This document shows, one piece after another, positions 20,339-63,769 of a DNA stretch of 64,000 nt; position 1 is the first letter of the stretch, and each line of letters opens with the position of its first letter. The stretch comes from Candidatus Babeliales bacterium (GTDB lineage: Bacteria > Babelota > Babeliae > Babelales > JANWKD01). The translations under genes and the position numbers were made by a program. The DNA is taken from the NCBI GenBank assembly GCA_963722075.1, contig CAVRJM010000001.1, positions 64,001 through 128,000 of the forward strand. Direction: 5' to 3'. The notes beneath the pieces were generated by a model. That model was not told where the DNA came from, made no database searches, and was given only the letters and a program-made list of their open reading frames with translations.

Positions 20339-22234
20339 ATGAGGCCTCATAAAATCATGCATTACATGCATCGCACGGCTCAACTTGGATTACTAAGAAG
20401 TTGTTTACTTATTGGTAAGCGAATTATGAAAAAATATCAGCATCGTTCATTAAAAGCGAAAGTGCTTGCTAAAAAATCCTTTCATCCATGGTCGTATATA
20501 ATAAAAAAATATAAATATCGTGCTGATTTTAGTTTTTTTTGGAAGGAAAGAAAAAAGAAATTACAGCTAACAGTTGCTGATATACAACTATCGGTATCTT
20601 CTGAAGATCTTTTAACCCAAGCGTTTGAAATTACTAATAACAATTTTACAATTTTAGGATCTTCTAAAAGAAGTTTTACTTATTTGCCATGGCATAGTGA
20701 TATTCGCTTAGCCCAAACAGATGAGAAAAATAGTTATTTTGATCGTGAGCTATTTTATAAAGAGATACTTATTACTTATGGCACTGATAAAAATCTCATT
20801 AAAGATATTAAGGTACCGTGGGAATTATCGCGATTACAGCACTTCTTTGTTTTAGGTGCCGCGTACCAAAAAAGAGCGGATAGTGCATATGTAAGAACGT
20901 TTATTGATCATTTTAATGATTGGTATAAAAATAATAGCTTTTTGCTGGGTCCTAACTGGGTATGCCCTATGGATGTTGGTATTAGAGCCGTTAATATAAT
21001 ATGGGCACTTGCATTATTAAAAGATAGTCCTGAATTGTCATTAGATTTTTTACAAACAATAACCGGTAGTTTATATGACCATTTTGTGTATTTAGAACAA
21101 AATTGGGAAAAGTATGATGATTTAAAAACATCCAATCATTATTTATCTGATTTAATTGGTTATTTCTATTTATGTTATTATTTCTCTGATTTTGCCGCCA
21201 TTGCCAAAAAAACACAATGGTGTTATCAAGAATTATTAACAGAATTTGAAAAACAGATTTTTGATGAGGGAACTGATTATGAAGGATCAACTGCGTACCA
21301 TGTATTAATTACCGAAATTTTTTACCATTTTTATATGCTTGGTCAAAAAATGGGTTTTGTTTTTCCTGATTCATTTATCATCAAATTAAAGCGCATGTTT
21401 ACCTTTATTGATTGGTGTAAAGCAGGAAAAGAGGAACCATTATTGCTTATTGGTGATAATGATTCGGGTAAAATTTTATTCTATGGGCTCAGTAGTTCGT
21501 TAATTGAATCAATGAAAGAAGTGGCTACGAATGAAAAAAAAGATTTTCCAGAATTTGGGCTTTCTATTATTAAAAATGAGCGGGTGCATTGTTCATTACG
21601 CCATTATGTATATCAGGAAAAACAGCCTTCTGGCCATTTTCATAATGATGCTGCCAGTATCACTCTTACGGTAAATAATATTCCTCTTTTTATTGATCCT
21701 GGTACGTATGTATACACGCCGTCAGCATGGTGGCGTAATTATTTTAGATCAGTTAAACAACATAATACTTTTTATATTCAAGATACTGAACCGGTTGAAT
21801 TTACTGAACATCTTTTTGAACATAGGATGCCGGCTGCATCCTGCCAATATGAAATTGACAAAATAGATAAGTTAAAAACAGCTCATAATTTATATAAAGA
21901 GCGATATGGATTACGGGCATCTCGGGAAATTAGCTGCTTACAGAATAAAATACAAATAACTGATATTTGGCGTTCTCAGCGCTCAATAGATCCACATCTA
22001 TTTGGTGTATGGAATTTTATGCTTAATCCCGCAATAATTGCTAAAAAAACGATGCATGGATTTAGTTTCATTAATGAAAATCGAGAAATTGCACAATTTA
22101 CTTCAACGCTCGATTTTGTTATTAAAGATGGTTTTATATCATATGCCTACGGTACTAAAGTGCCTACCGTTCGCTTAGAAGCAGTGGTCAACATAATGCA
22201 TGATGATCCGGTGATATCTATTATAGAGTTTTAA
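20339..22234 (+). CDS. Heparinase II/III-family protein
   Basis: DIKVPWELSRLQH, NWVCPMDVGIRAVN, SNHYLSDLIG, EGSTAYH, GHFHND, IDPGTYVY, HNT motifs. Exact start uncertain. Confidence 0.88.
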   Translation: MRPHKIMHYMHRTAQLGLLRSCLLIGKRIMKKYQHRSLKAKVLAKKSFHPWSYIIKKYKYRADFSFFWKERKKKLQLTVADIQLSVSSEDLLTQAFEITNNNFTILGSSKRSFTYLPWHSDIRLAQTDEKNSYFDRELFYKEILITYGTDKNLIKDIKVPWELSRLQHFFVLGAAYQKRADSAYVRTFIDHFNDWYKNNSFLLGPNWVCPMDVGIRAVNIIWALALLKDSPELSLDFLQTITGSLYDHFVYLEQNWEKYDDLKTSNHYLSDLIGYFYLCYYFSDFAAIAKKTQWCYQELLTEFEKQIFDEGTDYEGSTAYHVLITEIFYHFYMLGQKMGFVFPDSFIIKLKRMFTFIDWCKAGKEEPLLLIGDNDSGKILFYGLSSSLIESMKEVATNEKKDFPEFGLSIIKNERVHCSLRHYVYQEKQPSGHFHNDAASITLTVNNIPLFIDPGTYVYTPSAWWRNYFRSVKQHNTFYIQDTEPVEFTEHLFEHRMPAASCQYEIDKIDKLKTAHNLYKERYGLRASREISCLQNKIQITDIWRSQRSIDPHLFGVWNFMLNPAIIAKKTMHGFSFINENREIAQFTSTLDFVIKDGFISYAYGTKVPTVRLEAVVNIMHDDPVISIIEF

Positions 22235-23400
22235 TGGGTGCCATTGCCAACAATAAAATTATTTTCTAGGGCCCAATTATCAATCGCTTCTAAAATCTGC
22301 TTACTGGCTGCATTATTTTTTTGAGTTGCTTTGATGATTGCGTCTTTTAATAGTTGCGGATCTATTGCTTGCGGAAATGTCCATTCGAGTAATAAATGTA
22401 CCAATGGAACATTATTTTCATCGATAGCATAGGTATAGGCAGAATCGCCAAAATTATCATGAATATTAACGTCTGCGCCATTTTCAAGTAATAATTGAGC
22501 CAATGAACGCTGTACGCGATTGGACTGCTCTTTTCGTGCGAGTACCATTAATAGGGGTGCGGAGAACCGAGTATAATTTACATCAGCTCCTGAATCTATT
22601 AATAACTTAATTAATTTTAATGAAGGGATTTTATTTTCACTTGCAAAAATTGAAATAAGCGTATACAGCATTATTGATAAATCATGAATGGGGAGTGCAT
22701 TCAATTTTATCCCTAATACTATTTTTTTATATAAATCATTAACCAGAGATGGATATAAACTTATTGCAGAAAAATATTCTATATAATGGTCTGGATTATC
22801 ATAGGTTAATAATACTTGTAACATTTGTTCACTTGAGGGCTTTAATACCGATTGAATTAAGGTATTTATTGAAGAAATATAAAAATGGGAATTCTTTAAT
22901 TTATATAATAGGCTTTGTGTAGTAATAATATCATTATTTTTAACTGAATTAATTAATTGCTCAAATAATTCTTTTACCCGTTCAAACAATCCAATAAATA
23001 ATGGGTCAATTTTTTTATGCATCAACTCATTAATAATATCATCGACAATATATGAAGCGGGTAATCGACGTGCAATTTTAAGTGCAAGCGAATTTAAAAA
23101 AAGGTCATTTCGTAATGCAAAATAATATTGCTCATTTACCGTAGATAATCTCGAAAAATCTTTAATAAAATCAAGATATTGTTTTTTTAGATTGGTGATG
23201 GTTTCATGAATAGCTAATTGGGTTTCTCTTTTTTTGAATGGTAATCTAACTTTTGGTGGCAAAAGATGTTTTACAACCTTAAGAATAAGTTCCAAAGGAA
23301 GTTTTTCCAGTGATGCTTTTTCAGGCTCACGAGATTCCATTGCAAATAATTTTAATGGCAATAATAGTAGAATAAGAATAAAAATAGATAATTTTTTCAT
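22231..23400 (-). CDS. Secreted F-box-like plus ankyrin repeat protein
   Basis: Signal peptide ending KLFA-MES; SLEKLPLELILKVVKHL; ankyrin repeats (LLIDSGADVN, LLLENGADVNIHDNFGDSAY). Confidence 0.8.
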   Translation of the reverse strand: MKKLSIFILILLLLPLKLFAMESREPEKASLEKLPLELILKVVKHLLPPKVRLPFKKRETQLAIHETITNLKKQYLDFIKDFSRLSTVNEQYYFALRNDLFLNSLALKIARRLPASYIVDDIINELMHKKIDPLFIGLFERVKELFEQLINSVKNNDIITTQSLLYKLKNSHFYISSINTLIQSVLKPSSEQMLQVLLTYDNPDHYIEYFSAISLYPSLVNDLYKKIVLGIKLNALPIHDLSIMLYTLISIFASENKIPSLKLIKLLIDSGADVNYTRFSAPLLMVLARKEQSNRVQRSLAQLLLENGADVNIHDNFGDSAYTYAIDENNVPLVHLLLEWTFPQAIDPQLLKDAIIKATQKNNAASKQILEAIDNWALENNFIVGNGTH

Positions 23401-23532
23401 GATTTCTCCAATTTAATATATTATAATTGTAATTAAATTATTGATACAAAATCAACAAATAGAATACCAAAAGAACGTAAAACTTATATTGGTAAAGGTG
23501 AAATCAAGTTATATAGTATCTAAGTCGTTTTT

Positions 23533-23817
23533 TTATTTCTTCCATACAATTCCTTCCTGCAAAATGGTAGTATGTAGGTCATCTGGAATGGTATTCATAT
23601 CAACCACATCAATCATTAAAGGCAAATTTAATCCTTCTAAGACATTTCTTGCTTTACTTATTTCTAAAAAATTAAGCTTTTTGCCTGTATCAATTGCTAG
23701 GTCAGTATCTGAAAATGGCTTAGCCGTACCTCGGGCACGCGAACCAAAAAGGTAGATTTTTACACCAGGAAATAAAGCATCGAGTAATCGGATTATTATT
23801 TCTTGTTCTTTAATCAT
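23533..23817 (-). CDS. Minimal nucleotidyltransferase (MNT antitoxin-like)
   Basis: IYLFGSRARG...SDTDLAID...IDVVD motifs, 94 aa. Confidence 0.9.
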   Translation of the reverse strand: MIKEQEIIIRLLDALFPGVKIYLFGSRARGTAKPFSDTDLAIDTGKKLNFLEISKARNVLEGLNLPLMIDVVDMNTIPDDLHTTILQEGIVWKK

Positions 23818-23890
23818 TTTAGTTATTAATCTTTGTAACTTATAACATTATAATTACTAAATATAACATTTATATGGCAAGGAAACTATT

Positions 23891-24571
23891 ATGAATAAAA
23901 TGTTTTTAGTACTGATTTTTGTTATTCCATTTTATGCTAAAGGAATGGAACGACAATATAATAACTCAGAAAAAGAAATAGTAAGGCAACTAGTTAAAAC
24001 GCCGGGAGGGTTTGCCCAGCGATGTGCTGAGGTATCTATGGAAGCTCAAGCAAAGCAAGCTGCAATTGAAGAGAGAAGACGAAAAGAAAATGAAGATATT
24101 GATGGTCTTATTGCCCATACGTTAGCAGATCGCGGCTATATTATAAGGCCAAAATATTATAATGATTCATATGCAAGATTAATGTATGAAAGCATAACTT
24201 TATACGAAAATTTTGAAGGAACGGTAAAATATATCGATTTTTCAGGAATTTATCGAATGTATTTGTTACGAGATTTAATTAAGGATCAGCTTAATCGCTC
24301 CGAAAGTTTAGCAGAACTCTTATTTAGCACCTGTGATTTAAATAATCGCGGTAAAAAACAATTTACCGGCCCCAATGTAGATTTACTGGCAATAATATTA
24401 GAAAATTGTGTTATTAACAAAGACCAAGAAGGGAATAATGTTGTTGATACGAGTAATTTGTTAAAAAATACTGGCTTGATAAATCATTTCTATGCAGCAT
24501 TGGGGTATACCTCGCTAGGAATTGGGTTGACGGTTGCTGGGTATTATTTAGCAAAATTGATTCAGAAGTAG
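23891..24571 (+). CDS. Hypothetical secreted protein with C-terminal transmembrane helix
   Basis: Signal peptide ending AKG-MER; C-terminal ALGYTSLGIGLTVAGYYLAKL. Confidence 0.75.
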   Translation: MNKMFLVLIFVIPFYAKGMERQYNNSEKEIVRQLVKTPGGFAQRCAEVSMEAQAKQAAIEERRRKENEDIDGLIAHTLADRGYIIRPKYYNDSYARLMYESITLYENFEGTVKYIDFSGIYRMYLLRDLIKDQLNRSESLAELLFSTCDLNNRGKKQFTGPNVDLLAIILENCVINKDQEGNNVVDTSNLLKNTGLINHFYAALGYTSLGIGLTVAGYYLAKLIQK

Positions 24572-24586
24572 GTCTTATTTTATTAA

Positions 24587-24615
24587 TGGATCCCCACGCT
24601 ACGCTCGGGACGACA
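24587..24615 (-). repeat. YGTC...CCA REP-like element overlapping the tilS 3' end
   Basis: Reverse complement TGTCGTCCCGAGCGTAGCGTGGGGATCCA; contains the tilS TAG. Confidence 0.85.
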
Positions 24616-25588: not shown

Positions 25589-25784
25589 ACATAAATAAGC
25601 ATACCAAAAAATTATATTTTTGAAATAATTTTTTTAGAAAACAAAAGGCATCATTTCATTCTAAAAGGTAATTCTTGTTTTCATAAATCTCATTTGAGTA
25701 GAATAAACCATAAGGGATAAAAAATGTTCAATCTATTTAATAGGATAATAGATTGCTCCAGTTCAATTAATTCAGGGGGCCTTA

Positions 25785-29305: not shown

Positions 29306-30031
29306 TTATTTTGTTTTACCGTCTATGATGTCGTTTAAGGCTTTAGTTGTTTTAGATTGTGCCGCAGCTTTTTCAGCTTCTATTTGCTCAAGCAATCGTG
29401 ATCTCTCTTGACTAAGATCATTATATTCTTTGTCAATAGTGATAGAAGAATTGCAGAGACCAAGTTCCGCTAAACGAGTGTCTATTTGATCTAATTGCAT
29501 ATCTGCTGTCGCTTTTGTAGGAATTGAATCGGTAGGGAATACGGTTTTGATATTAATGATTCTAATCCATTTACCATTCCCTTTATCGAGCTTTAATGTA
29601 TGCGAATTTTCAAGAGCAAAAGCTATTCTACCTAAAATTTGGTCTGTTGTTTCATTATCTTTTTTAATTTTTGCTATTAATGCTAAATTTTCAAGTTTTA
29701 GATAGCCAAATCCTAGTGCTGCAATTGAGCATGCAGCTTTTCTTTCATTTACCCAATTCCATATACCTTGAGTAAAATTCCAAACAAGTTTTGGAGAATT
29801 CTTTATATAGGAATTTTGAAATCCATTTTTATAAACATTGTAGCCATCAATTAGTATACAACTGCCTACTGCAATTCCACCTACCCAAGATGCATAGTAT
29901 TTCATATTAAAAGGAGCGGCAGCCGGTTTTGAGGAGCCTGCATCACTTGTCTTCATACCATACATTTGTAAGGAGCAACTCAGCAATAAAAGTGTAGAAA
30001 TTTTTCCAATAAAATTCATGATTTTCCTCAT
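29306..30031 (-). CDS. Hypothetical secreted membrane protein (NxYKNG family, copy 3)
   Basis: Signal peptide ending MYG-MKT; IDGYNVYKNGFQNSYIKNS motif; C-terminal coiled coil. Confidence 0.75.
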   Translation of the reverse strand: MRKIMNFIGKISTLLLLSCSLQMYGMKTSDAGSSKPAAAPFNMKYYASWVGGIAVGSCILIDGYNVYKNGFQNSYIKNSPKLVWNFTQGIWNWVNERKAACSIAALGFGYLKLENLALIAKIKKDNETTDQILGRIAFALENSHTLKLDKGNGKWIRIINIKTVFPTDSIPTKATADMQLDQIDTRLAELGLCNSSITIDKEYNDLSQERSRLLEQIEAEKAAAQSKTTKALNDIIDGKTK

Positions 30032-30143
30032 GGTTAAAATAAAAAAATATAATCACAAAAGATTATATAAAAAATTTAAAAATATACAATCAACATTTTA
30101 ATGAAGAATGTTGTATTAATACAAGAAAAGATGTAAAAAAGTC

Positions 30144-30731
30144 TCAGTCAACGCCTTTTGAAATAGGTGACGGTAAGTCATTGTTCGATTCCTGTTGTGC
30201 TATTTGCAATAGATTACGGCATAACATTTGTTGTGCATCTTCTATCTCTTGGGGCAACATACCAAATGCTGGTCCGAAAATTGCCATAGATTGTTGTGCA
30301 ATATCCATTTGTTGTGCCATATCAATAGGATTCAGCTGTAATTGTTCAGAACCCGCACCTAGGTTTGCATAATATTTAAGCGGATTATAAATTGTTTTTT
30401 CTAGCAGATAAATTTTTCTATGTAAATAAGCATTCCATAATCCAAAGGTTGCTCCCCATCCAATAACTGCCTGTTTCAAATCATGTAACGTCACCATGTT
30501 TTTACCAAAACGCCAGATTGATTGTAATGAGTTCTTTAGATAGGAATGTTCTAAACCATTTTTATAAATATTGATACTATCAAAAAGAGCAAAACACGTT
30601 CCTAAACCAGTAATTGTCCAACCAATATTTTTTTTAGTTAAAAAAGAACTATTCTTCCGTTCCATTCCATATAATGGTACTGCTGCGCAAAATAATAGTA
30701 AAAAACTAAAATATTTTTGGCTTTTATTCAT
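30144..30731 (-). CDS. Hypothetical secreted membrane protein (NxYKNG family, copy 2)
   Basis: Signal peptide ending LYG-MER; GLGTCFALFDSINIYKNGLEHSYLKNS. Confidence 0.75.
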   Translation of the reverse strand: MNKSQKYFSFLLLFCAAVPLYGMERKNSSFLTKKNIGWTITGLGTCFALFDSINIYKNGLEHSYLKNSLQSIWRFGKNMVTLHDLKQAVIGWGATFGLWNAYLHRKIYLLEKTIYNPLKYYANLGAGSEQLQLNPIDMAQQMDIAQQSMAIFGPAFGMLPQEIEDAQQMLCRNLLQIAQQESNNDLPSPISKGVD

Positions 30732-30879
30732 GTTTTCTCCTTTATAAATATAATATTATTATTTTATATACCCTTATTTTTTATACCTTATGAATTTTTT
30801 GCTCTTAAGTGTAAGAAAATGGTATATGATAAAAATAAATTCACCAAATGATTATCAGACAATTCCATATTAGAAAATT

Positions 30880-31815
30880 TTAAAGGCGATCTTTCCCTTT
30901 ATTATTTGATGAATTTTCTGAGGAAGAATCCTGTAAAGCATTATTATTTATCTTAGATTCATCAATTTGTATTGTCCATGAATCGGATAGAGGTTGCCAC
31001 TTCCAATAATCCTTATATTGTTTCTTTTTACACACAGTTAGTGCTTTAAATTGTTGTTGAATTTGATCAAAAGCTTTCTGGTATTCGTTTTTGGTAACAA
31101 AATTTTCCGAGAGTTCATTTGATTGTTTTTTAATTTCGTTTAACACTTCAATTAGCTGTTTATTTTGTTCAAACATGATCTGATAATCAGAGTTAATTCG
31201 TTTATTATTTGAATAATCTTTATACCAGCGCCATCCATTAAAAATAGCGCATGTGGCAAATAAGGTATGGAATGCTTTTTTGGGATGTTGTACGGTCCAA
31301 AGATTTTTTGCAAGATTCCATGCAGTATTTGAAGATTGCTTAATATAAGAATGCTCATAACCATTTTTATAAATATTTAAGCAATCAAAAAGTGTAAAGC
31401 AGGCACCCAATCCAATCATGCTGCCATACAATGTTTTTTTGGAGAACCATGAAGAATAAGGGGAAGGTGTAGGGTTGTTTGCTTCTTGGGGATTGGATAA
31501 AGAATTGATTTGTTGATCCATTTTATCAGGTTCTGGGTTTGTTCTGGTGATTGTATTTCCGTCAAGAAGTTGTGTACCATTTGATCTACCTGGAACTGTT
31601 TTACTGGTATGGTGATTATTTTTTACCGTTGTTTCGGTTACGGTACGTTTTATAGAATTTTCACCTTCGTCATTTGTTCTATTACGTTCTATTACGAATG
31701 CATCTGTTTCGTTAACTAAAGTTTGCCTTACTGATTTTTGATCCAGTTCCATACTCCAAAGCTGTGGCACGTAACTAAATAGTCCTAAAATCATTATTTT
31801 TGCATATTTATTCAT
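30880..31815 (-). CDS. Hypothetical secreted membrane protein (NxYKNG family, copy 1)
   Basis: Signal peptide ending LWS-MEL; GLGACFTLFDCLNIYKNGYEHSYIKQS; coiled coil. Confidence 0.75.
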   Translation of the reverse strand: MNKYAKIMILGLFSYVPQLWSMELDQKSVRQTLVNETDAFVIERNRTNDEGENSIKRTVTETTVKNNHHTSKTVPGRSNGTQLLDGNTITRTNPEPDKMDQQINSLSNPQEANNPTPSPYSSWFSKKTLYGSMIGLGACFTLFDCLNIYKNGYEHSYIKQSSNTAWNLAKNLWTVQHPKKAFHTLFATCAIFNGWRWYKDYSNNKRINSDYQIMFEQNKQLIEVLNEIKKQSNELSENFVTKNEYQKAFDQIQQQFKALTVCKKKQYKDYWKWQPLSDSWTIQIDESKINNNALQDSSSENSSNNKGKDRL

Positions 31816-34978: not shown

Positions 34979-36082
34979 TTAAAAATCTAAATTGTGGGCT
35001 GATTGTTTTATATTTTCTCTTGTTAGTCCAATCATTTGTAGGATTATGGAGAAATCATTAAATGATGGTGATGGCATTGCCAGACGAGAAAAAGAGGTTC
35101 CGCATATGTTATCCCCTTCTAAGGATGGTATGCATTTTTGAATAAGAGGTAGTTCAGGCATCTTAAAACAGATATTTGGTGAGCAACAGCATGCTAAGAT
35201 ACCTACGGTGGTTGAGCAGAGAATGCAGGTGCAAAGAAGCGGTACTAAAATAGGCTTTGAAGCTATACATCCTAAAATCGTTGATAAGCAGCACATAGAA
35301 GAAGCACACGCTTGTTCAAGCGGTACACAATAACGACTTGTCGCGATACAATTGATGACAAGATTTGAACGATATTTCCGCTGCATAACATATCGATATA
35401 ATCTTTCCAACAGCTCTTGACGTAGTAAGCAATAATCAACTTTGCTAATATTCTCTTCAATGAGCGAAGGGGGAGTAAGTGTATTATCTTGGTAATCATC
35501 TAATATTTTTGCACATCCATATTCATTAATTAACCAGCAACGGAGGCATGCATGAAGCAATTGTAGATCATTAAAATAAGGAGATGGTTGTTTTAATTTT
35601 CTGCCAAATTGCAAAGCTCGTCGCAATAGTTTTTCTTTAGGTAAAGTTTGCTCTTTTATACCTTTAATTAAGCATTTTACGTGATACAATGCGAGCTTGT
35701 TGCTTGATTGGTTTACCGTTTCTTTTGTTAGGTATTTAAGATGTATAAAATAAGCCAATGCTGCATTATCAAGAAAAGGAACGATATAAGCGATGATTTC
35801 ACGCGGTAAATTTAGAAAGCGTTCCATTAATTCTTTTGTTTCTTTTGAAATAGGAGTACGGGGCTTAGGTTGGTTTGATGATTTTGCTAATAACGGCGTG
35901 TGCTCATTATAGTCATCATAATCCTCTTGATCGATATCTGATAATAAGGTAGCAATTCCTTCCTGAAAATCATGAGCGTAGTACGGCTTTGATGAAGAGG
36001 CTTCCATTTCCCACTCCATGCCCAGCAAAGAAAAAGATGATAACCAAAGTACGCAAAAAAGTATTGAATGAGTTATTTTCAT
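34979..36082 (-). CDS. Secreted F-box-like protein with Cys-rich hydrophobic C-terminal segment
   Basis: Signal peptide ending LLG-MEW; FLNLPREIIAYIVPFLD; CASSMCCLSTILGCIA...LCTCILCSTTVGILACCC. Confidence 0.7.
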   Translation of the reverse strand: MKITHSILFCVLWLSSFSLLGMEWEMEASSSKPYYAHDFQEGIATLLSDIDQEDYDDYNEHTPLLAKSSNQPKPRTPISKETKELMERFLNLPREIIAYIVPFLDNAALAYFIHLKYLTKETVNQSSNKLALYHVKCLIKGIKEQTLPKEKLLRRALQFGRKLKQPSPYFNDLQLLHACLRCWLINEYGCAKILDDYQDNTLTPPSLIEENISKVDYCLLRQELLERLYRYVMQRKYRSNLVINCIATSRYCVPLEQACASSMCCLSTILGCIASKPILVPLLCTCILCSTTVGILACCCSPNICFKMPELPLIQKCIPSLEGDNICGTSFSRLAMPSPSFNDFSIILQMIGLTRENIKQSAHNLDF

Positions 36083-36578: not shown

Positions 36579-37298
36579 ATGAAGAAACTTCTTTTATTTT
36601 TATTTATTTGTTTATTAGAGTTTAGTTTACTTGCTATGGAAGTCCCTGAGGCTAGTGAAAAAATGGTGATTTCAAATAATGATATTAAAAAGCAACGGCT
36701 AATGAAATTGAAAATATATATCAATCAATATATTGTCGGTGAAAAGCGTAATTACTCAGTTAATGAAATTATGGAAGAAGCTGAAAGATTTTATACGGAA
36801 AACACTGGCGAGTTTTTAAATTTACCCACTAATAAAGCATTGTATAGTAAAGTAGCCAGCAGGATGGATAAAAAAAGAGATAAAATTGCTATCGATTTTA
36901 TTATGTATGCAAAGACCGTTGATTTGGAATCACCATATTACTCAAAAGACGAATTATTAAGCGAAATAGAGGGATATATTAAAAATGGTGGAACAATTTT
37001 AGATAGTGCATACAGCGAATTATATGAAAGCATTGTTGATACTATTTTAACAAAAAAAATAGTTGAAGCCGGGCAGGAATTATCTGGGCTACAAAAAGAA
37101 GTAAAAGAAATGAAAGCAAAAAATGGATTTATAAAATTAATGTATGGTTTTTCTGATAACGATCAATTAGAGAATATAAATGAAGATTTACTTGATTTTC
37201 CTCCAGTTCCATTGTTGGATTTGCCTTCAGTGCCTTTGAAGAAAAGTAAGAACGTTTCCAAAAGAATAATTGAGTCAAATAAATCTAAGAAAGAGTAA
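36579..37298 (+). CDS. Hypothetical secreted coiled-coil protein (LYE family, copy 1)
   Basis: Signal peptide ending LLA-MEV; SELYESIVDTIL plus coiled coil; basic C-terminus. Confidence 0.75.
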   Translation: MKKLLLFLFICLLEFSLLAMEVPEASEKMVISNNDIKKQRLMKLKIYINQYIVGEKRNYSVNEIMEEAERFYTENTGEFLNLPTNKALYSKVASRMDKKRDKIAIDFIMYAKTVDLESPYYSKDELLSEIEGYIKNGGTILDSAYSELYESIVDTILTKKIVEAGQELSGLQKEVKEMKAKNGFIKLMYGFSDNDQLENINEDLLDFPPVPLLDLPSVPLKKSKNVSKRIIESNKSKKE

Positions 37299-37328: not shown

Positions 37329-37832
37329 ATGAGAAAATTATTTTTACTACTATTTATATGTTTATTGGATTTTAGTTTAACTGCTATGCAACCTACTAAA
37401 GAATTTGAAAATAATATGCCATCGGTGGCTTCAAGTTATTTTGTTAAATGTGGAGCAGTATTAAAAGAATTTGAGAATTATTTAAAAAAATACAAAAGAG
37501 GGGCTTGTTGTACCTTTGAGGATTCAGAATCAATAAGCTTGCAAGAAGAAATTTTAATAAGAGCAAGGAAATTGGCTGAGGAAGATCCAGAGGAGTTTTG
37601 CACAACTGAATTTTGCGTATTATATGAAATGATAATTAATGAAATCTTTGAGGATGAAGAAATAAAAAAAGCATTGGAAGAGGTTAAGAGATTGAAAAAG
37701 GAACATATTAGTATTCAAAATGACAATTCTCGATTGCGAGCACAATTAAGGCAATGCCAATCGGAGCCAAAGGAATTGGATGAATTAGATTTGAATGCAA
37801 CCCAAGATAATTTCTCCGATGAATCTTATTAA
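37329..37832 (+). CDS. Hypothetical secreted coiled-coil protein (LYE family, copy 2)
   Basis: Signal peptide nearly identical to 36579, ending LTA-MQP; VLYEMIINEIF plus coiled coil. Confidence 0.72.
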   Translation: MRKLFLLLFICLLDFSLTAMQPTKEFENNMPSVASSYFVKCGAVLKEFENYLKKYKRGACCTFEDSESISLQEEILIRARKLAEEDPEEFCTTEFCVLYEMIINEIFEDEEIKKALEEVKRLKKEHISIQNDNSRLRAQLRQCQSEPKELDELDLNATQDNFSDESY

Positions 37833-38068: not shown

Positions 38069-38878
38069 ATGAATAAATTTTTTTTATTCCTATCATTTTT
38101 GTATATAGGTACTGTCGGACATGTTCTTATCCCTATGGATTATAACGCTGTATCCATATATCAAAACGAGTCACCGATGGTTTTAGATGATCTATCTAAA
38201 GCAATATTAGGTGGATTAAGAAATTATATACGAGAACAAAAAAAAGAAGACGCTTATGTGGAAGCTGAAAAGTTACTGCAAGCAACAAAGCTGGTGAAGC
38301 AAAACCCATTTCAATTCTCTACCATTCTACCTTCTGAATTATATGAAATAGTAATTAATAATATTTTGAAAAAGGCACTTCATGAGGTACAAGAATTACA
38401 AAAAGAGTTTCAAAATATACAAAAAGAAATGAAAGATATAGCTGGGCAGGTTAATACACTAATTAATCAGCAGCAATTGGCTCAACCTGTTGAAGCGTTG
38501 CCGGTATATGAACCGTTTAAGCCATTTAATTTTGTTTCTTATTCTCTTGAAGATATGGGAGAGGAATCTCTTTTATCAGAAATTATATTGGGACCTGATA
38601 ATTACAATGATGGTGAGCATGAAAATCAAATTGATCTTGTTGTTGCAATGAGCCAGGTAGAAGGACAACAACCTGATAATGATCGTGCTTATAATCCTTT
38701 TCATGGAAAAAGTTCGGCTTTGGTAAGTGGCAGTAATCATAAAGGGCCTTTTTTAGCAGAAATGGAAAAAGGAAAGCATTTACGTAGGAAGTTAGTAAGC
38801 CCTTACCAAAAAAGAAAAAAATCAACCAAAAAAACGGGACGATTCGAAAAAACTAATTCAGAAGAAAATGATCACTAA
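38069..38878 (+). CDS. Hypothetical secreted coiled-coil protein (LYE family, copy 3)
   Basis: GGAG RBS before ATG 38069; signal peptide ending LIP-MDY; SELYEIVINNIL; C-terminal PYQKRKKSTKK. Confidence 0.72.
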   Translation: MNKFFLFLSFLYIGTVGHVLIPMDYNAVSIYQNESPMVLDDLSKAILGGLRNYIREQKKEDAYVEAEKLLQATKLVKQNPFQFSTILPSELYEIVINNILKKALHEVQELQKEFQNIQKEMKDIAGQVNTLINQQQLAQPVEALPVYEPFKPFNFVSYSLEDMGEESLLSEIILGPDNYNDGEHENQIDLVVAMSQVEGQQPDNDRAYNPFHGKSSALVSGSNHKGPFLAEMEKGKHLRRKLVSPYQKRKKSTKKTGRFEKTNSEENDH

Positions 38879-49986: not shown

Positions 49987-50229
49987 ATGAAATTAAATAA
50001 ATCAATTTTTCTATTGATTACATCAATAATGTTGTATGGCTATGCGATGAAACGCGAAAGAAATGGAATTCAGCAGATTATTGTGTCAGATAGAATGTTT
50101 GAACCGAATAAGCTACCTGAAGCAGCACAAGAAAATAAACAATTGAATAAACTCATAAAAACAGATAAAAAAAAGAAAAAAAACCAAAAAATGATTCATT
50201 TGAAAATGATACATTTGTACCAGAGGTAG
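49987..50229 (+). CDS. Small hypothetical secreted protein (possibly truncated)
   Basis: Signal peptide ending GYA-MKR; Lys-rich tail encoded by poly-A runs. Confidence 0.5.
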   Translation: MKLNKSIFLLITSIMLYGYAMKRERNGIQQIIVSDRMFEPNKLPEAAQENKQLNKLIKTDKKKKKNQKMIHLKMIHLYQR

Positions 50230-51078: not shown

Positions 51079-51801
51079 ATGCAATTGAATAAATACCTGG
51101 CTCATGGAGGCATTTGTTCACGGCGAAAAGCAGTTGAGCTTATTAAACAGGGTTTAGTTACGGTAAACGGAAAAATAATTACTATTCCCGAGTTGATGGT
51201 TACTACAAACGATAAGGTATTTTTTAATAAAAGAAGAGTACAAATTTGCCACTCAAATGTATATATCGTTCTTAATAAACCAGCTGGCTATATTACCACA
51301 ACATCCGATGAAAAAGGGCGCCCTACGGTGATGGATTTATTGCCTAAATCATTATCTAAACATAAATTATATCCCGTTGGAAGGCTTGATAGTGATACCA
51401 CTGGTCTTTTACTCATTACTAATGATGGTCAGTTAGCGCATCACTTATCGCACCCGCGTTATGAAATACAAAAAGTGTACTTAGTAACGCTTGATAAATC
51501 ATTGTATACCGAAGATATTCTTCGCCTAAAAAAAGGAATATACCTAAATGACGGTATCGTAACATTAGATACAATTACGGTACTTAATATTGCAAGGACA
51601 CGTCTTAAAGTTACGATCCATAGTGGTAAGAATAGAATACTGCGCCGTATTTTCGAGCAGTTAAATTATAGCGTTCTTACGTTGGAACGAGTTTCTTTTT
51701 CTTCTATCACCAAAAATAAATTACCACGTGGTTGTTATCGTTTATTAAGCAATTTTGAAGTAGATCGTCTTAAAACTGCATTTCCTCAACTTGACCGCTA
51801 A
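51079..51801 (+). CDS. rRNA pseudouridine synthase (RsuA/RluB family) with S4 domain
   Basis: LNKYLAHGGICSRRKA S4 domain; LNKPAG; YPVGRLDSDTTGLLLITNDG. Confidence 0.95.
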   Translation: MQLNKYLAHGGICSRRKAVELIKQGLVTVNGKIITIPELMVTTNDKVFFNKRRVQICHSNVYIVLNKPAGYITTTSDEKGRPTVMDLLPKSLSKHKLYPVGRLDSDTTGLLLITNDGQLAHHLSHPRYEIQKVYLVTLDKSLYTEDILRLKKGIYLNDGIVTLDTITVLNIARTRLKVTIHSGKNRILRRIFEQLNYSVLTLERVSFSSITKNKLPRGCYRLLSNFEVDRLKTAFPQLDR

Positions 51802-52105
51802 GCTCATGAAACTTCTGCGGACATTGCATAAGCACTTCATATAAAACTGCTTGTATTACATGAGATTTATTATAACTAAGGATTGTTTTAAGGAATTCAA
51901 CTCGTTGATACTCTACATAATCATCACCACAGACAACAGCGGTAAGTTTGTTTTGTGCCGATTCTCTTAATGTTACGTCGTTGGGTTTGTTAACGAGTTT
52001 TTGTAATGTTTTATCAAATATAGAAATTTCGTGATCGAAATTGCTCAAGATGCTGCTACTATACAGGATAACCGTTGTGCATATTGCTATTTTTTTTATA
52101 TTCAT
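51770..52105 (-). CDS. Small secreted two-Cys helical protein (copy 3)
   Basis: Signal peptide; conserved Cys pair as in its two neighbours. Confidence 0.7.
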   Translation of the reverse strand: MNIKKIAICTTVILYSSSILSNFDHEISIFDKTLQKLVNKPNDVTLRESAQNKLTAVVCGDDYVEYQRVEFLKTILSYNKSHVIQAVLYEVLMQCPQKFHELSGQVEEMQF

Positions 52106-52119
52106 ATAATTCTTTCTTA

Positions 52120-52488
52120 TTATAATTCGGTTTTCATCTCATTTTTTACGCTATTATACATTTCTAGAATCTCATGATGAAAGTTTCGCACTATTGCGTA
52201 AAACCCTGAGCATTGCTCATAAGTATCAATTAATAATAGATTGATGGTCGGGTGAGATTGATTTTCATATAACACATTAAAATATTGAATTTTAGTTTCT
52301 AGGAGATTGCCTCGAGTACACATTACTTCAATAAATGATGTTCGAACCTCATCCAAAGCGGAATCAGAATAGCTTTGAGTAAGTTCAGTGACTGTTTTTT
52401 TGAACGCATCAAGCGGAATAACTTCGCTCAAAACTGATATTTGGTAACTTATTAAAAAAATATATATGAGGGTTTTTTGTATATTCAT
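52120..52488 (-). CDS. Small secreted two-Cys helical protein (copy 2)
   Basis: Signal peptide; EVMC...EQCSGF. Confidence 0.7.
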   Translation of the reverse strand: MNIQKTLIYIFLISYQISVLSEVIPLDAFKKTVTELTQSYSDSALDEVRTSFIEVMCTRGNLLETKIQYFNVLYENQSHPTINLLLIDTYEQCSGFYAIVRNFHHEILEMYNSVKNEMKTEL

Positions 52489-52496
52489 TATTTTAG

Positions 52497-52814
52497 TTAG
52501 TTGTTATATATTTCTTCTATTTGGCTTAAGAATAGAGGACATTCGAACCGCATTCTTGTTAAAAGCAATTGAGCTATTGCTGATGATTCATGGTTTTTAA
52601 TCTCCTGTAAGATCATCACCGTATCGGGTGATTTATGGTTTTTGCATATCGCCATCATAAAAAGTGTTTCAACATGTTCTTGTGCCATTTGATTTGTAGG
52701 GTGTTCTATAGCATTTTCTAATGCGTGCTTAAATACGGTCACGGCATCATCTGATTGAGCTATCAGTGAAGTAGCATAAAAAACAACGCCATATAATAAT
52801 AATTTTTTTTTCAT
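52497..52814 (-). CDS. Small secreted two-Cys helical protein (copy 1)
   Basis: Signal peptide; MAIC...FECPLF. Confidence 0.7.
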   Translation of the reverse strand: MKKKLLLYGVVFYATSLIAQSDDAVTVFKHALENAIEHPTNQMAQEHVETLFMMAICKNHKSPDTVMILQEIKNHESSAIAQLLLTRMRFECPLFLSQIEEIYNN

Positions 52815-57640: not shown

Positions 57641-57665
57641 TTAAACTATAAACAAGGAGAGAATA

Positions 57666-58286: not shown

Positions 58287-58379
58287 GAAATGAAAAAGTA
58301 AGTATAAGTCTTATCACAAGGCAAACCCATTTAAAATATAGTACTTAAAAGAGTTATTCTTTATGAATGATTTTATTAA

Positions 58380-58441
58380 TGGATGGCCACGCAGGCTCGC
58401 CATGACAACTATTGTCATTCCGAACGAAGTGTGGGAATCCA
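58380..58441. repeat. Inverted pair of YGTC...CCA elements (58380-58407 -, 58413-58441 +)
   Basis: Reverse complement TGTC-ATGGC-GA-GCCTGC-GTG-GCCAT-CCA; TGTC-ATTCC-GA-ACGAAGT-GTG-GGAAT-CCA. Confidence 0.85.
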
Positions 58442-58526
58442 TTAATTAATACCCCTTTTTTATTATTTCTAAGGTCTAAAATATATCGGTAAATTTTAGT
58501 TGAGATAATCCCTATCAAAAATTTTA

Positions 58527-58554
58527 TTGACAAATAATAATTTTTCTATAAAAT
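58527..58554 (+). promoter_or_regulatory. Sigma70-type promoter
   Basis: TTGACA-16 nt-TAAAAT; GGAGG RBS follows. Confidence 0.65.
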
Positions 58555-58575
58555 GATAATAAATGGAGGAAAATT

Positions 58576-59373: not shown

Positions 59374-59381
59374 ATAATTTT

Positions 59382-59416
59382 AGGCGCTTATATCAAAAAT
59401 AAGCGCCTCTTTTTTT
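59382..59416 (+). terminator. Intrinsic terminator
   Basis: AGGCGCTTAT-ATCAAAA-ATAAGCGCCT followed by a T-run. Confidence 0.75.
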
Positions 59417-59511
59417 ATCTCTTTTTGTACTTATCCATTTTTAATATCCCTCAATTTATTGTCTACTCTAAATTATATATGAAAATATATTAATTTAATA
59501 AATTAATGCAA

Positions 59512-59539
59512 TTGACAAATAAGAAATATTTGGTAAAGT
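59512..59539 (+). promoter_or_regulatory. Sigma70-type promoter
   Basis: TTGACA-16 nt-TAAAGT with extended TG. Confidence 0.55.
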
Positions 59540-59585
59540 TAGAATATATGCGTTATTTAATTAATAAGTATTAATGGAGGGAAAT

Positions 59586-61274
59586 ATGAAAAAAATAACT
59601 TATTTATTACTGCTTTTGCCATTTGCATTACGGGGTATGGAATTTGCCCCTAAAAATGAATATGATTTTTTAACGAAAGATGGTAAAACCATTACCTTTA
59701 AAAAAACTATATGCCAAAAATGTACGACATTAAAAAATTGTATAGATAATGAGCAAACAGTTGAATCAAGCGATGAAAAAAGTATAGCTCGTTTGCCATT
59801 TTCTTTTAATACGCTTAGCCAGTTGCGCAATCTTATTAATCATGCAAGCAATAAAAGAAATAATAATAATATAAATGAGCTATTTGAATATTCCTTACCT
59901 GATTTTATTGAATTATTTAAAGCAGTAACGTATTTAGATTGCTCTGTTGTTAGACCATTTATTATGAATAAACTTGTTAAAAATTGTGTTGAATTATTAC
60001 CTGAAACATACATTAATTTAAAACTTGCAAATGAAATAGGTATTCCTGAAAGTGATGTTGGCATTAACGAAATATGCTTATTATTAAAAGAAGAAACTGA
60101 TAGCATTAAAAATTTACAAAAGCATATCAAGCCCAATGAAATTTCTTTAACAGTAAGTGCTACTTTTTTAAATACATCTATTACCGGTTCCACTTATCCC
60201 GTTTATGATAATGAAATAGATGGTTATGGAATAATTGATATCGAAAGTAAAGCACGAAAACATACCGTTTATACGATACCTAAAGATCGTGTATTACAAA
60301 TTCACACCTTCAATGATGTACATGTAGTAATTTCGCATAATACTGAAACCAACCAGTACAAAATAACAATGCATCAGCCAAACGCAAACCCAATAATAAT
60401 TCGTAGTGCTAGCAAAATTCATTCCGTTAATTTATCCCCTGATAAGAATAGCTTACTTATTGGTTGTGGCGGTGGTAGCATGTTTGAATATAATTTGAAA
60501 ACAAGAAAACCTATTCTTATAAATACTAACGCACGTTTTGTTTTTTTGGTTCAGTATTCACCGTGTGGAACACATTTTGTTGGAGTTTCTGAAGGTAAAG
60601 TAAAAATCTGGGATACACCAACAAAAAAATGTCTTGCTGAATTGGTGACGAAGCCATATAATCAGCTTACCCTTGGTAAGACCGTATCCTTCTCAGCTCA
60701 TAACGAAGTAGCATACATTGGATTAGATGATACGATTCATATTATTGATTTGAATTCAATAACAGAAAAAGTACCTAATGAAATAGTAATTTCAATGCCA
60801 GAATTATCAGAAAGTACGGCTTTATGCTTTTCTTCTGATGGCAACTATTTAGCTGTACAAAAAGGCGAAAGCGAAGTCATTTTAATCGATAGAGTCGCAA
60901 AGCAAATCGCGTATCGCTTTGCTAATTTTGCTAAGGAACTAAAAATTGGCGGTATATTTTTTAGTGAGGATGATTCTCAAATTAAATTGTATGATGCTCA
61001 TCATCAAAAAATGTACTGTTTTCCTTTATGTATATCTAAATCATATATTGCATCATTAACAAATGAACAGTTATTATTGTTAACACATATTGCTGATCAA
61101 TATGCTACTAATGAGGACGCGGTAGTTTTACCGCAGTTGGCTTTATCCAAGGTACCAAATTCATTAGCGGCTGCTCTTACAAAATCGAATATTATAAGAA
61201 CAGTTTCTTGGAAGGAGCTAACAGTTTCTTGGATGGCAAGACTAAAAAATAAAATTGGCTCAATATTAGAGTAA
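59586..61274 (+). CDS. Secreted Skp1/BTB-POZ-like plus WD40-repeat protein
   Basis: GGAGG RBS; signal peptide ending LRG-MEF; FLTKDGKTITF...CTTLKNCI...FIELFKAVTYLD; WD40-like SVNLSPDK, VQYSPCGTHFV..SEGKVKIWD, ALCFSSDGNYLA. Confidence 0.78.
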   Translation: MKKITYLLLLLPFALRGMEFAPKNEYDFLTKDGKTITFKKTICQKCTTLKNCIDNEQTVESSDEKSIARLPFSFNTLSQLRNLINHASNKRNNNNINELFEYSLPDFIELFKAVTYLDCSVVRPFIMNKLVKNCVELLPETYINLKLANEIGIPESDVGINEICLLLKEETDSIKNLQKHIKPNEISLTVSATFLNTSITGSTYPVYDNEIDGYGIIDIESKARKHTVYTIPKDRVLQIHTFNDVHVVISHNTETNQYKITMHQPNANPIIIRSASKIHSVNLSPDKNSLLIGCGGGSMFEYNLKTRKPILINTNARFVFLVQYSPCGTHFVGVSEGKVKIWDTPTKKCLAELVTKPYNQLTLGKTVSFSAHNEVAYIGLDDTIHIIDLNSITEKVPNEIVISMPELSESTALCFSSDGNYLAVQKGESEVILIDRVAKQIAYRFANFAKELKIGGIFFSEDDSQIKLYDAHHQKMYCFPLCISKSYIASLTNEQLLLLTHIADQYATNEDAVVLPQLALSKVPNSLAAALTKSNIIRTVSWKELTVSWMARLKNKIGSILE

Positions 61275-61284
61275 AAGAAAAAAT

Positions 61285-61312
61285 AAAAGGCGCATGTATA
61301 TGCGCCTTTTTT
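61285..61312. terminator. Bidirectional intrinsic terminator
   Basis: AAAAGGCGCAT-GTAT-ATGCGCCTTTTTT between convergent genes. Confidence 0.85.
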
Positions 61313-61313
61313 A

Positions 61314-62768
61314 TTATAAATATTTTTTTAATAATTCTGGAATAATTTTAGGATTTGCTTTACCTGCTGTTTTTTGCATAATTTGCCCTACAAAGAACCC
61401 AAACATTTTTTCTTTGCCAGATTTATATTCAGCAACCTGAGCGGGAAATTGTGCAATTACCTCTTTAACAATCTTTTCAATTTCTTCAGTCGATTGTATT
61501 TGCTCAAGGCCACGTTCTTTAACAATTGCTTCAGGGGATTGCCCTGTTTGGGCAATAACGGCAAAAACTTCTTGAGCACCACGGTTATTAATAATACCGC
61601 TATCTACTAAGTTAACTAATTGAGCTAATTTTTCGGCGGTAATTTTACATTCAGCTAATGCTACTTTGTGCTCTTTTAAATAACCCATCAAATCGCGTAA
61701 AATCCAATTTACTAAAGATTTACTTGAAGTATGATTTGCTGCCTCTTCAAAATAGGTACATAATTCAGGATCTTCAATAAGAATCTCAGCTTCATATACC
61801 GAGATTCCTTTTTGTGTGCAATAACGTTCTAAACGCTGTTCTGGCAGTTCTGGCAACTGTTTTTTTAATTCATCTATTAATTCGTCATTAACGGCAATAA
61901 GTGGTAGATCTGCCTCGCGGCAATAACGATAATCAGCAGCTTCTTCTTTAGAACGCATGGGGCGGCTTATTTGTTCCTTAGTATCCCATTGGCGTGTTTC
62001 TTGTTTGATGCGTTGCCCTGATTCTAGAAGTTCAATTTGGCGTTCGATTTCATATTCAATAGCATCGCCAATAAATTTGAATGAGTTAATATTTTTTAAT
62101 TCAACGCGTGTTCCCAGTTTAGTGTCGCCTTTTTTGCGTACTGATATATTGGTATCAGCGCGTAATGATCCTTCTTGCATATTACCGGTACTAATCCCCA
62201 AATATACTACAATAAGACGCAATGTTTTAAGATATGCTTTTGCTTCTTCAGCAGAACTGATATCTGGGTGGGTGACTATTTCAAGTAACGGGGTACCAGT
62301 GCGATTGAAGTCAACAAAACTTTCATTGGAATGCGTTGCATGAATATTTTTGCCCGCGTCTTCTTCCATATGAATACGCATGATTCGTACATTTTTTTTA
62401 GTACCATCAGCTAATCGACTGCGAATATGGCCATTTTGGCAAATGGGCTTATCGTTTTGTGTAATTTGGTAATTTTTGGGCAAATCAGGATAGAAATAAT
62501 GCTTGCGCGCAAATTCTGATACCGGAGTGATAGTACAATTAGTTGCTATACCTGCTAAAACTGCATCATATACCACTTGTTTATTTAATACCGGTAATAC
62601 GCCTGGGTATCCAGTGCAAATTTGGCAGATATTGGTATTTGGTTCTTGTACGGGCTCATTAGAGCAGGTGCAAAATATTTTTGTTTTGGTATTTAATTGA
62701 ACATGTACTTCGATACCAATAGTGCATTCATATTCAGGATATCGTTGTAATGCAGAGAGCTCAGCCAT
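61314..62768 (-). CDS. gatB: Asp/Glu-tRNA amidotransferase subunit B
   Basis: IGIEVHVQL, RKHYFYPDLPKNYQITQ, HMEEDAGK, DFNRTGTPLLEIVT, VELKNINS, MRSKE. Confidence 0.98.
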   Translation of the reverse strand: MAELSALQRYPEYECTIGIEVHVQLNTKTKIFCTCSNEPVQEPNTNICQICTGYPGVLPVLNKQVVYDAVLAGIATNCTITPVSEFARKHYFYPDLPKNYQITQNDKPICQNGHIRSRLADGTKKNVRIMRIHMEEDAGKNIHATHSNESFVDFNRTGTPLLEIVTHPDISSAEEAKAYLKTLRLIVVYLGISTGNMQEGSLRADTNISVRKKGDTKLGTRVELKNINSFKFIGDAIEYEIERQIELLESGQRIKQETRQWDTKEQISRPMRSKEEAADYRYCREADLPLIAVNDELIDELKKQLPELPEQRLERYCTQKGISVYEAEILIEDPELCTYFEEAANHTSSKSLVNWILRDLMGYLKEHKVALAECKITAEKLAQLVNLVDSGIINNRGAQEVFAVIAQTGQSPEAIVKERGLEQIQSTEEIEKIVKEVIAQFPAQVAEYKSGKEKMFGFFVGQIMQKTAGKANPKIIPELLKKYL

Positions 62769-63318
62769 GATGTTCCTTATCCGTGTTATTTGTGGTTAAG
62801 AGCGCTGCGGTTTGTTGAGGTTGTTGTTTAAAATAATTTATGAGATCTTTTACGCTGTCAAAACCAATAAATTCTCCTGTTTGAGAATTAGTAATACGTA
62901 TATTAGGAATTCCATAAAAGGCGCCAAGCTCATCCATTCTTTTGCGGACAAATGGTTCAATATAAGTGCGCATAGTCATAGTTCCTTGTAAATTTTTTTT
63001 TGTGAGCTCATCATAAGTAAGTTCGCCCAGTTTTATTAATGTTGAATGAACTTGCCCAATATTTATACAATATTGTTTTTTTTGCAGTGATATTCTTTTT
63101 TTTCCACTTAAAAGACTGGTTGCATATACAATTGCAGTTGCTTCATCAACAACTTCAAAAGATTCTCCTAGAGAGCCTGCTGGTAAATTTATTAGTTGTA
63201 ACCAGTTGAGGGGTTGAGGAGCCTCAACTTTCATTGCGTTGATTGCTTGATGTGCTAATAAAAAAATTAATAAAGAAATTGTTTGTTTTTTGTACAAAAC
63301 GAATGTTTTTTTAACCAT
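62761..63318 (-). CDS. Hypothetical secreted protein (TGExIGF family, copy 2)
   Basis: Signal peptide ending INA-MKV; KLGELTYD...SQTGEFIGF; overlaps the gatB start. Confidence 0.7.
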   Translation of the reverse strand: MVKKTFVLYKKQTISLLIFLLAHQAINAMKVEAPQPLNWLQLINLPAGSLGESFEVVDEATAIVYATSLLSGKKRISLQKKQYCINIGQVHSTLIKLGELTYDELTKKNLQGTMTMRTYIEPFVRKRMDELGAFYGIPNIRITNSQTGEFIGFDSVKDLINYFKQQPQQTAALLTTNNTDKEHHG

Positions 63319-63769
63319 GCTGTTCCCCGCTCGTAACATTATTTATAACTAGATTTTTCGAATAATCGGAAAAGTCTTGTTTAAATCCGATTATTTCCCC
63401 CGTTTCAAGTGAAATAATCGGCTCTTTTGAAAACTTATGAGCTTTAAGTATACCTTCAAATTGTAGCGTGATAAACATAGAAATAAAAAGTCCTTTAGGA
63501 ACATTATTATCTAGTTTTTGTTGTACTAATAAATCATAGGTAAAGCTAGCGAGCTTTGATGTAGCAGCATGGATAGAATATATATTATTTTCTGAAGGGG
63601 AACTGAGAACTTTTTTGTCTTGATCATCAAGCTTTTGAAGCCCAACCATGTTGGTAATCGCAGCAATCGTGCTTGATTTAAATAATAGGCGAGCTTTTTC
63701 TATATCGTTCTCCATAGCGCTACTACTGGCACATCCAAATATTAAAAAAAATAAGAGGTAATGAATCAT
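63311..63769 (-). CDS. Hypothetical secreted protein (TGExIGF family, copy 1)
   Basis: AAGGAA RBS before ATG 63769; signal peptide ending SSA-MEN; KLASFTYD...LETGEIIGF. Confidence 0.7.
   Translation of the reverse strand: MIHYLLFFLIFGCASSSAMENDIEKARLLFKSSTIAAITNMVGLQKLDDQDKKVLSSPSENNIYSIHAATSKLASFTYDLLVQQKLDNNVPKGLFISMFITLQFEGILKAHKFSKEPIISLETGEIIGFKQDFSDYSKNLVINNVTSGEQHG

Follow-up and report, generated by a model that had tools for sequence, protein, structure and literature searches.

We analysed a 64,000-nucleotide window (C1:64001-128000) of the 1.47-Mb, 99%-complete genome (34.7% GC) of a Candidatus Babeliales bacterium, in which a group of exported proteins carries methionine at the first position after the predicted signal-peptidase cut (+1 Met; the next residue is +2). 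A first-pass annotation of the window had described thirteen such proteins, with motifs of the form x-Met-[E/K/Q/D], as bearing a candidate effector export tag. All thirteen motifs were read in frame, with Met lying directly after a Sec-type signal peptide, 17-28 residues past the ATG start and behind a basic n-region and a hydrophobic h-region. The proteins are listed in window coordinates, the hyphen in each motif marking the predicted cut.

22231..23400, minus strand: ankyrin protein (Pfam ankyrin), 20-aa signal peptide, LFA-MES, Met codon 23338-23340
23891..24571, plus strand: unannotated protein, AKG-MER, Met codon 23945-23947
29306..30019, minus strand: unannotated protein, MYG-MKT, Met codon 29954-29956; longest open reading frame starts at 30031
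30144..30731, minus strand: unannotated protein, LYG-MER, Met codon 30663-30665
30880..31815, minus strand: unannotated protein, LWS-MEL, Met codon 31750-31752
34979..36082, minus strand: protein with a Cys-rich hydrophobic C-terminal half, LLG-MEW, Met codon 36017-36019
36579..37298, plus strand: unannotated protein, LLA-MEV, Met codon 36636-36638
37329..37832, plus strand: unannotated protein, LTA-MQP, Met codon 37386-37388
38069..38878, plus strand: unannotated protein, LIP-MDY, Met codon 38135-38137; Pro at -1, a cut that the Met-blind model does not favour
49987..50229, plus strand: 80-aa basic protein, GYA-MKR, Met codon 50047-50049
59586..61274, plus strand: WD40 protein (Pfam WD40), LRG-MEF, Met codon 59637-59639
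62761..63318, minus strand: unannotated protein, INA-MKV, Met codon 63232-63234
63311..63769, minus strand: unannotated protein, SSA-MEN, Met codon 63713-63715
63780..64000, minus strand: 3' part of a fourteenth Met-class gene, signal peptide and TNA-MEM just past the window end

The three window proteins initially described as eukaryote-like all carry the motif; Pfam supports that description only for the ankyrin protein 22231 and the WD40 protein 59586, as the F-box-like motif of 34979..36082 (about residues 88-111) was weak (E=0.1). A single-sequence AlphaFold model of the latter protein was uninformative (pLDDT 38.7), and an F-box-like motif near residue 32 of the ankyrin protein had no Pfam match. 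The N-terminal domain of the WD40 protein showed a Skp1/BTB-like resemblance that is a lead only (Atlas 0.84; no PDB match), and a homologue search with this protein matched only itself. The signal-peptide DNA of the adjoining genes 36579 and 37329 was 80.5% identical over 77 nt. As the first-pass annotation had stated, +1 Met was absent from the fibre/beta-helix proteins, 44785, the NodZ-type fucosyltransferase 46166 and the small proteins at 51770-52814; 8495, 41873, 54297, 55730, 57666 and 58576 also lack it.

Gene calling in this analysis gave 1433 genes, from which a Met-agnostic filter, allowing no more than one membrane segment further along, selected 666 signal-peptide-like proteins, some cytoplasmic or anchored false positives among them. 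Removal of eight proteins with nucleotide-binding or prepilin motifs left 658, and 39 with a possible lipobox were also left out for training. All cut sites are predictions from matrices or rules built in this analysis. A Met-blind matrix, trained on 263 Met-free signal peptides and using only the residues before the cut, placed Met at +1 in 140/619 proteins (background 1.7%), and at -1, +2 and +3 in 3, 29 and 62, respectively. Among the twelve window proteins scored (34979 was left out by a filter on C-terminal hydrophobic segments), the cut before Met ranked top in eight and had a posterior of 0.30-0.46 in three; LIP-MDY was missed. A fixed rule, identical for all 20 residues, found +1 Met in 257/658 proteins, a 6.8-fold enrichment, compared with 0.47-1.43-fold for the other residues; it also fired on 25/580 non-signal proteins, which means that the 257 include some false calls. 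A second, Met-anchored matrix cut before Met in 60/89 held-out relatives and, as a positive control, found Gln at +1 in 22/61 proteins of a Bacteroidota-rich outgroup, as the Q-rule predicts. Across 350 confident cuts, the +1 residue was Met in 157, Ala in 22, Ser in 17 and Gln in 13. The residue at -1 before unforced Met-[DENQ] was A/S/G/T/C/P in 203/237 cases, and the order at -3 was L>I>S>T>A. The basic n-region, hydrophobic h-region, small -1 and small or aliphatic -3 residues are those of Sec/type I signal peptidase (SPase I) substrates; neither the Cys at +1 of lipoprotein signals nor the cut ahead of the hydrophobic stretch of prepilin signals (class II/III) was found, Met sitting after the h-region and c-region. 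Cleavage directly before Met, as originally proposed, is thus predicted by both matrices, and these sequence-based results confirm that the +1 Met pattern is real and genome-wide.

The residue after Met was selective as well. At +2, the 257 proteins carried E in 105, Q in 35, N in 26, D in 24 and K in 19, a genome-wide order of E>Q>N>D>K, with no enrichment of Lys, that corrects the [E/K/Q/D] set first described. D/E/N/Q occupied +2 in 190/257 proteins, compared with a local background of 28% (p=2e-53), 641/2783 after Met deeper in the same proteins, 36/128 in non-Met signal proteins and 156/580 at cytoplasmic starts. Small residues (17/257 vs background 34%) and bulky hydrophobic residues (19/257 vs background 21%) were depleted. 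One vote per paralog cluster (n=179) gave the same outcome (D/E/N/Q 129, small 14, bulky hydrophobic 17). This spectrum fits NatB-type, Met-retained N-termini, in agreement with the NatB class named by the first-pass annotation.

A Pfam scan covered 370 of the 658 signal-peptide-like proteins (C1:1-829365). Under a Met rule written without annotation but after the first annotation table had been seen, and with functional groups likewise assigned after that table, +1 Met occurred in 22/24 eukaryote-like proteins (ankyrin, WD40, C2H2, J-domain, Sel1) and in 2/35 envelope-type proteins (BamA, Skp, TolB, Bat, thioredoxin, S41, DegP, PBP, beta-helix fibres, glycosidases and others), a significant difference (Fisher p=8e-12) that bears out the enrichment anticipated in the first-pass annotation. 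After inspection the counts were 21 and 0, one eukaryote-like and both envelope matches being probable miscalls. Other enzymes carried +1 Met in 6/32 cases, cytoplasmic false positives in 0/8 and unannotated proteins in 121/271. Since cleavage is predicted before Met and Met is nearly absent from envelope proteins, neither a cut elsewhere nor an equal frequency in ordinary periplasmic proteins, the two outcomes named beforehand as speaking against the proposal, was observed. The genome holds 41 ankyrin genes; 36 ankyrin proteins have a signal peptide, and 24 of these carry +1 Met (23 without one doubtful case). All four Skp1-domain proteins carry it (4/4); at C1:973394-982700, four tandem proteins combine a signal peptide, Met and a Skp1_POZ domain and are candidate SCF mimics. 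The Pfam F-box-like profile had no match in the genome, and a regular expression gave unconfirmed F-box-like motifs in six Met-class proteins and no others.

Further gene groups were noted. At L034:1-6038, three tandem proteins of 660-690 aa begin with a signal peptide, have Met-Gln as the first two residues past the predicted cut, and continue directly into a J-domain. At L048:1214-6616, three GNAT acetyltransferases have signal-peptide-like starts, which is odd for an acetyl-CoA enzyme, and none is Met-class. Within the window, the tandem Met-class trio at 29306-31815 shares a hydrophobic Gly-rich segment ending D-x-x-N-I/V-Y-K-N-G and is possibly a membrane-inserting family. Positions 994-20200 hold a cluster of long repetitive fibre/beta-helix proteins that have signal peptides but lack +1 Met, a repeat of which apparently continues in pieces at 3687-5437. 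Three tandem exported proteins of 105-122 aa at 51770-52814 have two conserved cysteines, no Pfam match and no +1 Met.

The genome shows features of membership in Babelota (Dependentiae, TM6), a lineage found inside protists: it is collinear with TM6 UASB340 contig L243 (six genes in order at C1:999174-1007613), carries two secretins and 41 ankyrin genes, and has a homologue named Babeliales; the parts of PMC4776705 and PMC4378268 consulted report two secretins and ankyrin expansion for the phylum. We scanned 214 Babelota genomes with an in-frame DNA pattern (five hydrophobic codons, Ala/Gly, ATG, E/D/Q/H/N/K), chosen among 40 designs, and obtained 2477 matches compared with 636 for reversed-pattern controls. 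A version with non-polar +2 codons gave 1146 vs 787 matches in 101 genomes, so the +2 preference is phylum-wide. Match density was 29/Mb in family f1, 20 in f17, 17 in f11, 13 in f5 and 11.5 in f18, and about 3-6 in f13, f12, f8 and f16; 72 genomes had at least 10 matches/Mb and 67 had at most 5/Mb. Usage of +1 Met varies roughly tenfold across the phylum. A 40-kb sample had suggested that the rule was missing from several families (e.g. f11), which the whole-genome density overturned for f11. Ankyrin and motif densities correlated over 20 genomes (rho 0.61), and the value fell to 0.41 (p=0.10) when only a single f1 genome was retained, so we do not claim this correlation.

In the ankyrin-rich genome G051 (family f6), the predicted +1 residue of the ankyrin proteins was A in 11, S in 9 and M in 2 of 43 scored (52 in total), with E (10) and Q (10) at +2, and from one paralog to another this position switches among A, M and F at +1; its other exported proteins had S in 20, A in 7 and M in 6 of 71. 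The same genome encodes signal-peptide-bearing FtsH-like, two-domain AAA and otubain-like proteins (L346:9405-17142 and L347:10868-12154). In G020, about eight tandem ankyrin genes lack a signal peptide (L019:1453-13234); five begin Met-Gln, as mature Met-class ends do, and this array of likely paralogs could reflect loss of the signal peptide or a separate route. Beyond the phylum, 401 Alphaproteobacteria gave 1724 pattern matches (one in G136), with 3.4/Mb in the 51 carrying an ATP/ADP translocase. By eye, in a check anchored on the start codon, 12 real signal-peptide+Met matches were recognised in five translocase-bearing alphaproteobacteria and 2-4 in five without, compared with 35 here by script; this alphaproteobacterial echo is suggestive only. 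Several orphan signal peptide + Met-[E/D/Q] proteins (4/8 in 40 kb) occur in G118 (L355/L376), a translocase-bearing alphaproteobacterium outside the Holospora order list.

Besides the Sec signals on the cargo, the genome encodes GspC, two secretins, a PilM/GspL-type protein and GspE. A search of this 99%-complete genome for the families of TolC, the type III/flagellar export gate and VirD4 found none. GspC, a 932-aa secretin, the PilM/GspL-type protein, a GspM-sized gene and a 799-aa secretin lie at C1:1151734-1160265 (L375:1734-10265). About 4.7 kb separates the two very long secretins, as in most of 61 genomes, and the first has a Cys-rich C-terminal tail; its N-terminal region looks like a usual GspD N0 domain, and no receptor-like domain was found on it. 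Two or three secretin matches occurred in 61/61 Babelota genomes, Met-poor and Met-rich alike. SPase I is encoded by two genes here and gave one to three matches per genome (some split), with no evident link to the Met rate; the f11 genomes G014 and G021-G023, each with one SPase I gene and 16-29 motif matches, weaken the case for a dedicated second signal peptidase. Judged from gene content, the type II system is the obvious and likely candidate for the second translocation step that the first-pass annotation had postulated.

Several known systems resemble this arrangement. Under the Bacteroidetes Q-rule, as given in sections of PMC5837995 and PMC10653852, Gln stands at +1 of SPase I substrates and is cyclised to pyroglutamate; in both cases, a large fraction of the exported proteins carries a lineage-specific residue at the first position past the type I signal-peptidase cut. 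Here, however, the residue is Met (157) rather than Gln (13 of 350), a second-position rule is added, and Met is limited to eukaryote-like or orphan cargo and varies about tenfold within the phylum, whereas the Q-rule spans all compartments; an enzyme modifying the Met end was not identified, no search for a glutaminyl cyclase having been made. The Plasmodium PEXEL export motif likewise exposes x-[E/Q/D] after a hydrophobic leader on host-directed proteins of an intracellular parasite (part of PMC10653839), an end matched here by E105, Q35 and D24 (plus N26) of 257; the present motif differs in being bacterial, in lacking RxL (no Arg among the listed -3 residues, -1 small) and in a predicted cut at the end of the signal peptide. 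In its manner of working the +1 Met rule is akin to the Q-rule and to the mature PEXEL end, yet it belongs to neither. It also resembles NatB/N-degron specificity, portions of PMC11735805 being the source, in that Met-D/E/N/Q dominates and MetAP-type and NatC-type second residues are depleted; here, by contrast, Met is internal, without a Shine-Dalgarno motif, and would be exposed post-translationally in a bacterium, whereas NatB acts at the host ribosome. Babela massiliensis and Chromulinavorax destructans, of the same phylum, have ankyrin, WD40 and ubiquitin-system proteins with signal peptides, for which Sec plus type II secretion has been proposed as the route; the excerpts of these reports (PMC4378268, PMC6561590) describe signal peptides only, and the word methionine occurs 0 times in the main text of PMC4378268. 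A full-text literature search, with supplements and subscription reviews of the phylum outside its scope, found no description of a +1 Met rule.

We weighed several explanations of the rule. A second translation start giving a cytoplasmic isoform, or a gene-calling artefact, would account for the choice of +1 Met by gene callers (57/257 in our own calls; public record P0002 also begins there). A Shine-Dalgarno motif, however, preceded +1 Met in 4/257 cases, compared with 146/257 true starts and 101/2790 other internal Met, and the -1 bias (203/237) also speaks against such a start; we therefore rejected it, and regard this explanation as highly improbable. It is also improbable, to a lesser degree, that a functionless Met hitch-hiked on the spread of ancestral promoter + signal peptide + Met-Glu cassettes, or as the captured genes' own starts. 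Eight gene pairs, including 36579/37329, do share signal-peptide DNA with unrelated mature parts, and Met genes are mildly clustered (122 adjacent pairs vs 95 expected). A signal-peptide DNA relative was nevertheless present for only 51/257 Met genes, disfavouring a single shuffled cassette, and the class spans 179/486 paralog clusters, 145 of them singletons, by which paralog expansion was rejected as well. Homologue pairs kept +1 Met in 241/270 cases (directed and non-independent), whereas other Met were kept in 35% and the +1 residue of non-Met proteins was identical in 10%, and 22/34 multi-member clusters were all-Met; the 23891 protein has three full-length homologues (28-34% identity) that all keep Met, with K, F or M at +2. 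Hitch-hiking is further disfavoured by a +2 spectrum unlike that of bacterial start residues (K96, N75, I62 of 580) and by the scatter of Met on the tree of a bacterial phosphoesterase family. On this quick tree, from which five distant or incomplete rows were left out, +1 Met stood in 8/42 rows and needed six gains or losses (at least three forced), and is thus labile between lineages.

The explanation we favour, tentatively and at close to an even call, is that signal peptidase gives host-bound, likely type II-secreted cargo a host-style N-terminus: Met-retained, NatB-type and N-degron-avoiding. The cargo would be exported by Sec, cleaved by SPase I before Met, released either by type II secretion or in outer-membrane vesicles, and would arrive in the protist cytosol. 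There, Met-[E/Q/N/D/K] would remain untrimmed by methionine aminopeptidase (MetAP), which needs a small second residue; +1 Met would spare the protein the Arg/N-degron residues often left by signal peptidases, and the +2 choice would avoid Met-hydrophobic degrons and make NatB acetylation possible. Genomes using Ser/Ala-[E/Q] would arrive at the same end via the NatA-type class. The text of PMC11735805 available to us describes NatB as acting on Met-D/E/N/Q, MetAP as cleaving only before small residues, and signal-peptidase products as entering the Arg/N-degron pathway; as the +1/+2 spectrum is that of the Met-kept, MetAP-escaping NatB class, selection by host processing appears favoured. Also in its favour are the class specificity (22/24 vs 2/35, with 4/4 for Skp1-domain proteins), the A, S and M ends followed by E or Q in G051 ankyrin proteins, the repeated gains or losses of Met in the phosphoesterase family and, weakly, the alphaproteobacterial echo. 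Several observations weigh against this reading. The same source describes NatB as co-translational and ribosome-tethered and unacetylated NatB-type ends as possible UBR targets, so that cargo imported in folded form may not be protected. Ala, Ser, Thr, Gly and Val would be just as safe and could evolve more readily, but the genome uses Met. Of the 36 signal-peptide ankyrin proteins, 12 lack +1 Met and mostly have a destabilising predicted +1 residue; DOT1-, NCA2- and lysophospholipase-like proteins also lack it, and +2 varies in other families (MP, MG, MF, MY). A 'safe' +1 occurred in 45/71 non-ankyrin and 29/43 ankyrin proteins of G051, so no class specificity was shown there, and the alphaproteobacterial echo is small (3.4/Mb vs 29/Mb in f1), both test sets having been picked for high counts. 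Because of the Met-less ankyrin proteins here and the Ser/Ala ends in ankyrin-rich G051, an obligatory export tag, as first suggested, is not supported.

The main alternative, though less probable, is that mature [M/S/A]-[E/Q/D/N] serves as a linear, PEXEL-like sorting signal whose bacterial receptor would be the type II system, a periplasmic chaperone or a vacuole-membrane translocon. NatB being co-translational, and Met being preferred over equally degron-safe residues, this alternative stays alive; it also draws on the sharp split between eukaryote-like and envelope-type proteins, the E/Q kept at +2 in G051 when +1 changes, and the tandem secretins of all 61 genomes. According to part of PMC10653839, the xE/Q/D ends that signal peptidase leaves on mature PEXEL proteins are enough for export. 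Against a sorting signal, no receptor was found, the same secretin pair is present in Met-poor and Met-rich genomes, and one third of the signal-peptide ankyrin proteins lack Met. Type II substrates are, moreover, generally recognised as folded structures. Bacterial-side quality control, in which Met-acidic ends would withstand aminopeptidases of the periplasm or vacuole, or be modified as a defence against them, we consider unlikely, on a level with hitch-hiking. The Q-rule does stabilise extracytoplasmic proteins (PMC10653852, in part), and membrane-anchored peptidases (S9 at 55730) and the three signal-peptide GNAT acetyltransferases are present; the Q-rule is, however, compartment-independent according to sections of PMC5837995, whereas resident envelope proteins here lack Met, and two GNATs checked match generic acetyltransferases, one with only weak NAA30/NAA50/ARD1 matches. 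Host-style mimicry and sorting may both be true at once. In the boldest form, a doubtful proposal that we rank slightly below sorting itself, signal peptidase in Babelota would expose [Met/Ser/Ala]-[Glu/Gln/Asp/Asn] as an evolved bacterial equivalent of the cleaved PEXEL end. Hundreds of effectors would thereby pass into the host cytosol via the type II system with its tandem secretins, or via another translocon, and would be taken as self by host N-acetyltransferases; some alphaproteobacterial endosymbionts would have converged on a weaker version of this N-terminal sorting code.

In Babelota, a large share of the tiny genomes consists of secreted orphans, with a type II system only. Bearing on which proteins reach the host, and by what route, the +1 Met rule offers a two-residue predictor of likely host-directed proteins, covering about 18% of the genes here and 121 of the 271 scanned unannotated signal-peptide proteins; for annotation, gene callers that start at +1 Met hide the signal peptide. 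If the pattern is a sorting signal, it would be a linear signal for Sec-dependent effector export, parallel to malaria PEXEL. If host N-terminal processing is the selecting force, these bacteria would shape their neo-N-termini to eukaryotic N-degron and acetylation rules.

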